In this document: positions 20,580 through 40,486 of the stretch, piece after piece
How positions within the stretch are numbered: the first letter of the stretch is position 1
Layout: each line of letters starts with the position of its first letter
Sequence record: PV467748.1
Direction: 5' to 3' (one strand)
Source: a phage
Length of the DNA stretch: 64,000 bases
The notes under the pieces: generated by a model
What the model was told of the DNA's origin: nothing
Database searches by the model: none
Seen by the model: only the letters and a program-made list of their open reading frames with translations
Made by a program: the position numbers and the translations under genes

Positions 20580-21152
20580 TCAACTCGTTATTTCTATCCA
20601 GTGCTTCCTGCACAATGACACGTAAGAATCGTTGCCACCTATAGAAACTTGGGCTCCGTCCTTAATTGCGACACCATCTTGGACCCTAGCAGTCATAGTA
20701 GCTTTACGGCCGCAATGGCACACACCTTTGTACTCAACGAGTTTATCTGCCGTAGCGAGTAATTCAGCAGAACCAGGAAACAGTTTACCCTGAAAATCAG
20801 TTCTTAGCCCATAGCACATAACTGGAACATTATAATTGTCTACTATCTTTGCCAGTTGTTTTATCTGTGCAGGTTCTAAGAACTGTGCTTCATCCACAAA
20901 CACACAGTGGATATCTTTTTGAGATTCAGCCCAACGATAGAACTCGTATAGGTCCATATCCGGAGTCACTGCATTAGCCTCTTGACTAATCCCTATACGA
21001 GACGAAATGGTATGGCTTGATTCTCTATTGTCTATCGCAGGCTTTAAAAGGAGCACGCCCATACCACGTTCTTTGTAGTTATGAGCTGCCGTTAGCAATG
21101 AAGCGGTCTTACCTGAGTTCATTGCCGCATAGTGAAACATCAAACTTGCCAT
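20580..21152 (-). CDS. tk: thymidine kinase
   Basis: 190-aa track ORF MASLMFHYAAMNSGKTASLL...VFVDEAQF...CHCGRKA...CRKHW, closely matching recalled T4 Tk. Confidence 0.9.
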   Translation of the reverse strand: MASLMFHYAAMNSGKTASLLTAAHNYKERGMGVLLLKPAIDNRESSHTISSRIGISQEANAVTPDMDLYEFYRWAESQKDIHCVFVDEAQFLEPAQIKQLAKIVDNYNVPVMCYGLRTDFQGKLFPGSAELLATADKLVEYKGVCHCGRKATMTARVQDGVAIKDGAQVSIGGNDSYVSLCRKHWIEITS

Positions 21153-21877
21153 TTAGATACAATTCCTCTATAAGAACAATCAGGATAACCTTTATTCAGG
21201 GCTATCTTTTTAAACATATATGCCGAGGGCTTATTAGATTCTTCCCATAGCATTTTCAATTCGTCATAATATTTCCAAGCCTCATTTCTAATAGGAGAAG
21301 GTTTTCCTTTCATTGCACCTTGTTTACCAAACATAGGATTCTTTTCACCCTTTTTAGAATCACTCATGTTTTTAATAGTAGCACATGAATGCTTAAAGCC
21401 TTTTAATTTTTTAGAGGCTTGCCCTATTTTAGCTTTATGTTCGTCTGTAAACCCTATTCTATTTGAATAGTGGTTCTGGCCTTTATTAGAAGTAGTGTGT
21501 TTAGAAGCTTCTATCCTCGCGTCGCTCCATTTAACTCCTTTTTTAGACCTAGACATTTTATATTTGGTCAATAAAGATAACTTGGACCCTTTCTTTTTAC
21601 CACGTCCGCCATCAGCAAAATTTAAGGAATGTTTTCCATATTTTAATTTAGCTTTTTCTACTAAAGGAACTTCAGCGTCGTAAGCTTCATCCTCAGTTTC
21701 AAAGAATTTTAATATACGGGTTTTATAAGGGTGTTTTTTGCAAATATTTTTAACAACAGTACCACTTCCAAAATACCCATCAGAAAGATTATCGGTAGAA
21801 TGTTTTCCTACGTAATAATAGTTGGCCTTGAGGGTTTTTATTACAGTTAAATAATTATAATGGAATTCCTTTACCAT
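21140..21877 (-). mobile_element. free-standing GIY-YIG homing endonuclease gene (Seg-like) upstream of tk
   Basis: 245-aa track ORF with N-terminal GIY-YIG-type motifs (YYYVGKHST...YFGSG) and K-rich NUMOD-like repeats; its 3' end overlaps the tk start. Confidence 0.65.
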
Positions 21878-22081: not shown

Positions 22082-22269
22082 TATTCTTCTACATGCTGTT
22101 TACGTTTATTTTTATCTATAAAAGTATATTCAACATATTCACCGATATACCATTTATCAGTATTGTGTTGACTTTTTATAGGGCATTTAGTTACTCGTGT
22201 TTCGGTCCAGTGCCGAATAATTTCCGCTTTGTTTTTAGGGTCAAATGGATGCGGGTAATGTGCTTTCAT
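22057..22269 (-). CDS. hypothetical protein (70 aa)
   Basis: Track ORF. Confidence 0.4.
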   Translation of the reverse strand: MKAHYPHPFDPKNKAEIIRHWTETRVTKCPIKSQHNTDKWYIGEYVEYTFIDKNKRKQHVEEYCLKVQWL

Positions 22270-22720
22270 AATCCACCACTATTAAATCAATATCAGGAGT
22301 AAACATGTCGATTAATTTAGAAACCTTGTCCCAATCACCGCCAGCAATACCACAACCTATACGAGGAATATAAATTCTTGGTTTAAACAAAAGGTCATTT
22401 GCTTGTAGATTTAATTCTATCATACAGTTTACTAAAGCACCGTAATCAAGATTAGGGCCTGGTTCGTATTGGGTATATAAATTATAGCACATTGCAAATC
22501 CATTAGGCTTATGTTTAAAAACAATAGACATATCACCTAATTTATCTCGAGAGCCGTATTCGGTAGTAGTCTTATCAATTTCTAAAATTTTAGGATAAGC
22601 TCTTGCTAATTGACCTGCTACACCTGAACCCATAGTGTGAAAACAGTTGCACCCATGTGCAATAATATTACCTTGGAGAAACAGGGCGACGATATCGCCC
22701 TTAATATAATTAATAATCAT
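22241..22720 (-). CDS. macro-domain protein (ADP-ribose binding/processing fold)
   Basis: 159-aa track ORF with GDIV...NIIAHGCNCFHTMGSGVAGQLA and later IPRIGCGIAGGDW, matching the macro-domain glycine-rich loops. Confidence 0.6.
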   Translation of the reverse strand: MIINYIKGDIVALFLQGNIIAHGCNCFHTMGSGVAGQLARAYPKILEIDKTTTEYGSRDKLGDMSIVFKHKPNGFAMCYNLYTQYEPGPNLDYGALVNCMIELNLQANDLLFKPRIYIPRIGCGIAGGDWDKVSKLIDMFTPDIDLIVVDYESTLPASI

Positions 22721-23073
22721 TTAGAGTTTAGTCCTCGGTTGTAAGAGTCAACGAGTCTGTCTACCATAGACGCGCACATTTCTTTGTACTTTTTATCAGA
22801 TGGAACACATTCAGTAACGTTTAGACGTTGCTCGTATCTTTTAGAAAGAGTTTTCTCTTTCATTCGGCGATGCTCGACGTCGTTCTGTCCATCTTTAAAA
22901 GCAGCTGTTATTTTTGAACTGAATTCAATAACACATTCAGTATTACTAGGATGACAATAATCTTTTGCTGTACGGGTAGCATACTCGACAATTGAATTAT
23001 TACTATCACCAACTTGTGACGCTAATACTCCCGGAGCAATCAACATAAGCGCTATAGTCATCTGTTTAATCAT
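22717..23073 (-). CDS. secreted/periplasmic protein with signal peptide (118 aa)
   Basis: Track ORF; N-terminus MIKQMTIALMLIAPGVLASQ. Confidence 0.5.
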   Translation of the reverse strand: MIKQMTIALMLIAPGVLASQVGDSNNSIVEYATRTAKDYCHPSNTECVIEFSSKITAAFKDGQNDVEHRRMKEKTLSKRYEQRLNVTECVPSDKKYKEMCASMVDRLVDSYNRGLNSK

Positions 23074-24091: not shown

Positions 24092-24141
24092 TCTCCTGTA
24101 GTTGATAGGTCTATAGTACCACGTCTACAGGAGATGTAAAC
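24092..24141 (-). promoter_or_regulatory. early promoter cassette (PeSL-like): -35 GTTTAC, 17-bp spacer, -10 TACTAT, perfect arms ctcctgtag/ctacaggag
   Basis: Plus ctcctgtagttgataggtctatagtaccacgtctacaggagatgtaaac, immediately upstream of regB. Confidence 0.65.
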
Positions 24142-28300: not shown

Positions 28301-28750
28301 TCAAAAGAGCGAATCTAAAACCTTAAACATCGACGGGCCCATGACATATTTCCATTGTGGACGTTTAATCAAGGCAAAGGCATCGAATTCAGGAATCGTA
28401 CGACCATCAGGGAACGTATGGTAAGCTGTACATTTGCAATTCTTGAACTGCTCGTGTTCCACAGGCACAGTATATAAGAACAGGTGTAGATTCTTATTGC
28501 TTGAATATTTGAACTCGCCTAGGTCTTTCAGGAATGCAGGATCGTATGCCGTGAATCCAATCTCTTCTTCGGTTTCACGCATTGCGGCTTGAATAGGCTC
28601 TTCGCCTGGTTCTACATGACCTTTAGGAATGTCCCATTTATGACGCATGTTCTCTGGATTACGAGAGCCTGTTACACGACCCATAACTAGTTCTTTATCA
28701 ACGGTCATGAACAAAATACCGGCAGATAGTTCTTTCACTTTCTTACTCAT
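28301..28750 (-). CDS. nudE: Nudix hydrolase NudE
   Basis: Track ORF 28301..28855 trimmed to ATG (MSKKVKELSAGILFM...); Nudix box GHVEPGEEPIQAAMRETEEEIG; sits directly downstream of e as in T4. Confidence 0.8.
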   Translation of the reverse strand: MSKKVKELSAGILFMTVDKELVMGRVTGSRNPENMRHKWDIPKGHVEPGEEPIQAAMRETEEEIGFTAYDPAFLKDLGEFKYSSNKNLHLFLYTVPVEHEQFKNCKCTAYHTFPDGRTIPEFDAFALIKRPQWKYVMGPSMFKVLDSLF

Positions 28751-28979
28751 CGTCTCGTTTCCATGATTGGTTAAAAATATCTTGCATAATAATTTGAAGT
28801 CTATTTTCTGATGATGGACTTTCACTATCAGACACTTGAAGCATATAGTCACCAATAGGACAGAACATATTCATATCGCTTTCTAAATCTTCTTTGATTT
28901 TCTCTTCTGACGTTCCGGTATCATAGGAATACAGATAAGAATCACATGACTCAGATTTAATATAAATTGCAATACTCAT
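28743..28979 (-). CDS. hypothetical acidic protein (78 aa)
   Basis: Track ORF; start coupled to the upstream stop. Confidence 0.4.
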   Translation of the reverse strand: MSIAIYIKSESCDSYLYSYDTGTSEEKIKEDLESDMNMFCPIGDYMLQVSDSESPSSENRLQIIMQDIFNQSWKRDDE

Positions 28980-37576: not shown

Positions 37577-37651
37577 TGGTATCCCGCCCTGGGATCGAAC
37601 CAGGACCGCAAACTTAGAAGGATCGTATGCTATCCATTACACCAGCGGGAC
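37577..37651 (-). tRNA. tRNA-Arg (anticodon UCU)
   Basis: Minus-strand GTCCCGCTGGTGTAATGGATAGCATACGATCCTTCTAAGTTTGCGGTCCTGGTTCGATCCCAGGCGGGATACCA; anticodon loop CTTCTAA; T-loop TTCGATC; encoded CCA. Confidence 0.65.
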
Positions 37652-37656
37652 GTAGT

Positions 37657-37733
37657 TGGTGACCCAGACCAGATTTGAACTGGTAACCTTTCCCTTATGA
37701 GGGGACTGCTGCTAACCATTGAGCTACAGGGCC
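37657..37733 (-). tRNA. tRNA with CAU anticodon (Ile-lysidine type or Met)
   Basis: Minus-strand GGCCCTGTAGCTCAATGGTTAGCAGCAGTCCCCTCATAAGGGAAAGGTTACCAGTTCAAATCTGGTCTGGGTCACCA; anticodon loop CTCATAA; T-arm ACCAG-TTCAAAT-CTGGT. Confidence 0.6.

Positions 37734-39587: not shown

Positions 39588-40486
<899 letters not shown>

Follow-up and report, generated by a model that had tools for sequence, protein, structure and literature searches.

The DarT2 toxin ADP-ribosylates thymidine in single-stranded DNA, at the second T of TNTC, with the consequence that replication is blocked, and the macrodomain of DarG2 undoes this modification. In bacteriophage T4, a saturated transposon library (HIDEN-SEQ) on a DarTG2 host returned tk.4 as the single significant hit, and a clean tk.4 knockout was found to be DarTG2-sensitive (bioRxiv 10.1101/2025.11.20.689424; November 2025, not peer reviewed). 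The gene was renamed adfM, for anti-DarT factor Macrodomain, in the same preprint, whose authors go no further than stating that the removal of ADP-ribose from DNA by T4 AdfM 'seems likely'. Our search of the literature for biochemical work on T4 Tk.4 found none, the genetic phenotype of the HIDEN-SEQ preprint being the sole evidence; likewise, no test of the T4 macrodomain was found in a study of RNA ADP-ribosylation reversal, in the CmdTAC paper or in a review of bacterial and viral ADP-ribosylation. The name AdfM has also been given to gp104 of PhiKZ, which removes DarT2 marks from an oligonucleotide in vitro, does so more weakly when carrying the N23A substitution, and rescues DarT2 toxicity (Cell Reports 2026, PMC13309987).

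Macrodomains that carry Gln at the position of the catalytic lysine are represented by a single characterised enzyme, SCO6735 (PMC9411070). Its hydrolysis of thymidine-linked ADP-ribosylated DNA outpaces that of DarG and TARG1, and it also rescues DarT toxicity; its Q85A and Q85E mutants are inactive, N27S is nearly inactive and G128E displays a substantial loss of activity. According to the authors' proposal, Asn27 locks Gln85, which in turn orients the distal ribose so that a water-mediated cleavage can follow (PMC9411070).

Identity of the gene

The phage DNA analysed here is a stretch of 64,000 nucleotides (PV467748.1, hereafter the window). On its minus strand, at 22241..22720, an ORF with an ATG start encodes a single-domain macro protein of 159 aa; the ORF coordinates and the annotation of the neighbours confirm the initial annotation in placing it between tk and regB. 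The 2.3-kb region around the gene displays 94-97% nucleotide identity to JS98-like relatives of T4 (genus Dhakavirus), and the JS98 ORF of the same position and length is annotated 'tk.4; phosphatase; contains A1pp phosphatase motif', an annotation identical to that of T4 tk.4. When compared to T4 Tk.4 (NP_049723), the window protein has 56% identity and 74% positives over 155 aa without a gap (E 8e-69), which corresponds to the full length of proteins of near-equal size (155 aa in T4). It lies between tk.3 and vs, and the order tk.3-tk.4-vs-vs.1-regB is common to the window, JS98 and T4. Judged by alignment and synteny, the window protein is thus the Dhakavirus (JS98-type) ortholog of T4 Tk.4/AdfM.

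The two orthologs have H22, N25, N80, Q84, G122 and G124 in common. They differ in the second glycine-rich loop, which reads IGAGIGKGNW in T4 and IGCGIAGGDW in the window, the latter being the family consensus, and in the genus of the phage that carries them (Tequatrovirus for T4); besides, the DarTG2 phenotype is known for the gene of T4 alone. The family is large: the window protein matches PHROG 335 (1.9e-70), and tblastn matched 2772 phage records, about 310 with a homolog at 90% identity or more. Labels given to the gene in the public records include Tk.4, 'A1pp phosphatase', 'macro domain protein', 'Poa1p-like family protein' and also 'hypothetical protein'. For the initial annotation the function of the gene was still to be settled, yet the gene belongs to a well-populated family that is already annotated and whose T4 member has recently been characterised at the level of a preprint, so that the finding is already known.

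Genetic context

The window tk.4 is embedded in an uninterrupted series of minus-strand genes. In the sense of transcription it is followed by tk.3 (Pfam DUF7202, 7.1e-37), tk.2 (DUF7438), an ORF for a NUMOD3 endonuclease and tk (Pfam TK, 1.3e-56), and it is preceded by vs, vs.1 and regB (REGB_T4, 2.2e-69). The vs ortholog (valyl-tRNA synthetase modifier; 22717..23073, minus strand), assigned by its position and the annotation in JS98 and T4, adjoins tk.4 upstream and is transcribed in the same direction; its product has no Pfam match, and, among the genes of T4 that are conditionally required in minimal medium, vs has been reported to be the strongest (bioRxiv 10.1101/2025.11.20.689424). The vs stop codon overlaps the tk.4 start codon in an ATGA (22717..22720, minus strand), and the 3' end of tk.4 overlaps the start of tk.3 by 29 nt (22241..22269, minus strand). 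With overlaps at both of its ends, tk.4 is likely to be co-transcribed and translationally coupled with its neighbours.

A scan for promoters and terminators around tk.4 yielded none above the shuffled background. Upstream of regB, the consensus scan returned a sigma-70-like match, TTTACA-16-TACTAT with TG (24113..24140, minus strand), which is a candidate early promoter of the regB-vs.1-vs-tk.4-tk.3 run, albeit a weakly backed one, because the promoter-like sites of this region are fewer than those in shuffled controls. A terminator-like hairpin within tk.4, TTGCACATGGGTGCAA (22647..22662, minus strand), lies inside the codons for HGCNCFH without a proper T tract and most likely represents a chance match.

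The NUMOD3 ORF (245 aa, 6.1e-11; 21140..21877, minus strand) separates tk from tk.2, with a 13-nt overlap with the start of tk. It is not found in JS98, where tk adjoins tk.2, while it is 96% identical to a gene of VR5 and 86% identical to genes of IME540 and ABTNLS3; copies at about 61% identity adjoin tk in T4-like phages of Klebsiella. Annotations elsewhere read 'site-specific intron-like DNA endonuclease' or 'homing endonuclease', and the ORF has the look of an inserted free-standing homing endonuclease gene whose presence varies among close relatives. The tRNA genes of the window (37577..37733, minus strand) are two only, Arg-tct and Met-cat, separated by 5 nt, while the equivalent position of JS98 holds three (Arg, Asn and Met), tRNA-Asn being the one that is missing here.

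About 5.6 kb from tk.4, the window has an ortholog of the NudE-type Nudix hydrolase (28301..28855, minus strand; PHROG 1185, 1.1e-72), in which the match begins at residue 31, the true start probably being downstream of the listed TTG. T4 NudE hydrolyses ADP-ribose, and one may speculate that the window NudE could dispose of the ADP-ribose freed by the macrodomain. Further away, an ortholog of T4 gp57B is encoded at 39794..40249 (minus strand; PHROG 755, 2e-66). Since gp57B is treated as Acb1, an anti-CBASS cyclic-nucleotide phosphodiesterase (bioRxiv 10.1101/2025.11.20.689424), with this ortholog the window would have two anti-defence genes.

Macro fold and active site

The window protein belongs to the macro domain family. 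The assignment, made at the outset by inspection, held in an HMM search, in which Pfam Macro (PF01661) scored 33.8 bits against a gathering cutoff of 22, with profile positions 2-117 of 118 covered. In a search of the PDB with the single sequence, Poa1p, BT1257, SCO6735, DarG of Mtb and TARG1 were matched. A family profile was also built from 54 members and used for the PDB search, the conservation counts and the AlphaFold2 alignment. This profile retrieved BT1257 (2.5e-19), TARG1 (2.8e-17), SCO6735 (3.3e-15) and Poa1p (4.3e-15), followed by the DarG proteins of Mtb (1.4e-12) and Taq (2.5e-10). AlphaFold2 run on the 54-member alignment returned the three-layer alpha/beta/alpha macro fold (pLDDT 93.4, pTM 0.88), on which the initial annotation had made its reading depend. 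BT1257-like, TARG1-like, Poa1p-like and DarG-like relatives are not separated by these sequence and fold scores, so that homology by itself does not reveal the substrate specificity.

Both glycine-rich loops that had been noticed at first sight are present in the translation. The first, substrate-binding loop, HGCNCFHTMGSGVAGQL, spans residues 22-38 (22607..22657, minus strand), and H22, G23, N25, C26 and G33 are invariant in 54 of the 54 family members. The second, phosphate-binding loop, IGCGIAGGDW, spans residues 121-130 (22331..22360, minus strand) and contains the invariant G122, G124 and W130. Together with N80 and Q84, the residues H22, G23, N25, G122, G124 and W130 are invariant throughout the family, Q84 being Gln in every one of the 54 members; its codon, read from the sequence, is CAA (22469..22471, minus strand).

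In order to place these residues, the window protein, T4 Tk.4 and PhiKZ AdfM, the last translated from the sequence given in PMC13309987, were aligned with the sequences of SCO6735, BT1257, TARG1 and DarG taken from HMMER alignments. The column of the catalytic lysine (Lys80 in Taq DarG, Lys84 in TARG1) is Lys in DarG, TARG1 and PhiKZ AdfM; the same column, which corresponds to Gln85 of SCO6735, is Gln in the window protein, T4 Tk.4, BT1257 and SCO6735. N25 of the window protein is aligned with N27 of SCO6735 and N23 of PhiKZ AdfM, G122 and G124 with G126 and G128 of SCO6735, while A126 sits at the position of D125 in TARG1.

Proposed function and alternatives

We consider it probable, with some confidence, that the window protein is a stand-alone macro-domain ADP-ribosyl glycohydrolase which acts as an orphan antitoxin against DarT2 by means of a Gln-type, SCO6735/BT1257-like site. 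In this scheme AdfM would be made early in infection, probably from the regB-vs-tk gene run, and its most likely job would be to remove the ADP-ribose that the DarT2 toxin of a host DarTG2 system puts on thymidine within TNTC motifs of single-stranded phage DNA, by which DNA replication would be restored. The active site would operate without a catalytic lysine, as in SCO6735 and BT1257 and unlike in DarG and PhiKZ AdfM: Gln84, kept in place by Asn25, would orient the distal ribose so that the thymine-ribose bond can be broken in a water-mediated step, while the two glycine-rich loops would clamp the diphosphate. We infer by analogy both the de-ADP-ribosylation of DNA by the window protein and T4 Tk.4 and the Gln-based mechanism, and we extend the latter to the AdfM clade of the T-even phages and Dhakavirus because the equivalents of Q84, N25 and G124 are invariant in it. 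The reversal of DarT, one of the roles suggested in the initial annotation, is supported for the T4 ortholog by the DarTG2 sensitivity of the tk.4 knockout (bioRxiv 10.1101/2025.11.20.689424). Several points speak against this explanation: the protein is 56% identical to T4 Tk.4 and does not have the same second loop, the DNA-positioning lysines and the mobile loop of SCO6735 are missing, and the net charge is -4. As an argument against DNA binding the acidic charge was dropped, since PhiKZ AdfM, which is active on DNA, is more acidic (-6).

The public labels 'phosphatase', A1pp and Poa1p-like imply a different role, that of an ADP-ribose-1''-phosphate phosphatase or O-acetyl-ADP-ribose deacetylase, in other words a small-metabolite enzyme that takes no part in defence evasion. 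We regard this as improbable: the labels are transfers by homology, which cannot tell Poa1p from DarG, TARG1 or BT1257, and a specific phenotype on DarTG2 hosts is known for the T4 ortholog. Moreover, Appr-1''-p originates from Tpt1-type tRNA splicing and is not known to be made by the T4 RNA repair enzymes (Pnkp, Rnl1), which argues against a phosphatase role. As macrodomains of this class often accept several substrates in vitro, a phosphatase activity would in any case be compatible with a role on DNA. An equally improbable option is a protein de-ADP-ribosylase which would erase the marks set by Alt, ModA and ModB of the phage itself, as a means of temporal control, or those of host defence ADP-ribosyltransferases; the family profile indeed scores TARG1 nearly as well as BT1257. 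Cleavage of arginine-linked ADP-ribose is nevertheless performed by ARH-type enzymes and is not known from macrodomains, which speaks against a reversal of the phage's own marks. T4-like phages do encode three ADP-ribosyltransferases, but these, Alt, ModA and ModB, modify arginine (PMC8120803). TARG1 and SCO6735 also strip Glu/Asp-linked ADP-ribose from proteins (PMC9411070), but the Lys84/Asp125 dyad by which TARG1 acts on Glu-ADPr is Gln84/Ala126 here, and tk.4 has been reported only as a DarTG2-dependent hit (bioRxiv 10.1101/2025.11.20.689424). A modulation of the phage's own transferases, as contemplated in the initial annotation, thus found no supporting evidence and is unlikely, because the marks of Alt, ModA and ModB are arginine-linked and the TARG1 dyad is missing.

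The neutralisation of DarT2 could also depend chiefly on the protein binding to the toxin or to the toxin's product, through inhibitory interaction or sequestration rather than turnover. In vitro, DarT is inhibited by each of the catalytically dead variants SCO6735 Q85A, DarG K80A and TARG1 K84A, most strongly by that of SCO6735 (PMC9411070), but the complete catalytic set is invariant across the 54 homologs, as expected under selection for enzymatic activity, and the window protein, whose 159 aa correspond to positions 1-142 of the 338 in the DarG model, lacks the C-terminal DarT-binding domain of DarG. As the main mode of action we give binding slightly less credit than either of the preceding options; non-catalytic inhibition of DarT may nonetheless be a possible contribution. 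The least probable reading, and one to which we attach hardly any weight, is a breakdown or sequestration by the protein of immune signals derived from ADP-ribose, for instance the gcADPR and His-ADPR of Thoeris. This had been put forward in the initial annotation, and no support for a Thoeris-signal role was found in the literature; a 2026 preprint on macrodomains and Thoeris was set aside as it concerns the macro domain of the host ThsA and not a phage enzyme.

The discovery value of the locus is small, since annotations of the gene exist in hundreds of T4-like genomes and an anti-DarTG2 role has recently been assigned to the ortholog of T4. With hydrolysis of DarT2 marks as the preferred reading, AdfM-like macrodomain, putative DNA ADP-ribosyl glycohydrolase, would be a better public label than 'phosphatase' or 'hypothetical protein'. 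What remains of value is the Gln-type active site, as opposed to the Lys-type of DarG, and the suggestion that anti-DarT2 macrodomains entered phages on more than one occasion.

Comparison with known macrodomain systems

The differences from DarG (PDB 5M3I, 5M31/5M3E and 7OMU) concern the active site as well as the architecture. The catalytic Lys80 of DarG is replaced by Gln84, the DarG loop PPLGxGNGGL reads PRIGCGIAGG in the window protein, and the DarG model (NCBIfam NF048014; PADLOC DarG) scores 28.1 bits against a cutoff of 250, with model positions 1-142 of 338 only. DarG has a C-terminal DarT-binding domain and an adjacent darT; the window protein has neither, its neighbours being vs and tk.3. 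By these sequence features it is not a DarG antitoxin. Next to bacterial and environmental homologs, darT was not found at the two loci inspected, which do not amount to a survey: the one in Pelagimonas (P0081) is an orphan surrounded by housekeeping genes, and the other (P0087) is on phage-like contigs. The human TARG1/OARD1 differs by its Lys84/Asp125 dyad, and yeast Poa1p aligned confidently over the N-terminal half only in the single-sequence search.

SCO6735 of Streptomyces coelicolor and BT1257 of Bacteroides thetaiotaomicron (PDB 5E3B and 2FG1/2AFC) form the Gln-type branch of the ALC1-like macrodomains. The window protein resembles them by having Gln in place of the Lys of DarG and TARG1 together with the conserved Asn (Q84 and N25, equivalent to Q85 and N27 of SCO6735), although the identity is only about 27%. 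The 'mobile loop' of this branch, which is 5-6 residues longer than the loop of DarG and TARG1 (PMC9411070), is absent, the window protein and T4 Tk.4 both displaying a 6-column gap relative to BT1257 at this place, and the columns of the DNA-positioning Lys34 and Lys89 of SCO6735 are A/S/G and G, respectively, in the family. We did not file the window protein in the SCO6735/BT1257 subclass, because the defining Gln is present but the loop is missing; by analogy, it probably works like these enzymes.

PhiKZ AdfM shares with the window protein the name, the proposed anti-DarTG2 role, the status of a stand-alone phage macrodomain and the Asn (N23, equivalent to N25), but it is of the DarG type, with Lys in the catalytic column and a PPLGCANGGL loop, and it is imported into the phage nucleus. 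A close kinship to this chimallivirus protein was rejected, the similarity amounting to 27% over 33 aa (E 0.001). From their sequences, the two proteins called AdfM, that of the T4 type and that of PhiKZ, look like independent recruitments from different macrodomain branches. Whether the Tk.4 clade of the T-even phages and Dhakavirus itself goes back not to DarG but to a Gln-type, SCO6735-like macrodomain that was recruited independently, which would have a short DarG/TARG1-like loop and would have lost the DNA-positioning lysines of SCO6735, is in our estimate an evenly balanced matter. If so, anti-DarT2 macrodomains would have been gained by phages at least twice, from different branches (Gln for Tk.4, Lys for PhiKZ gp104), and the Tk.4 branch might have broader or different substrates than DarG, for example ADP-ribose linked to other bases or to proteins.
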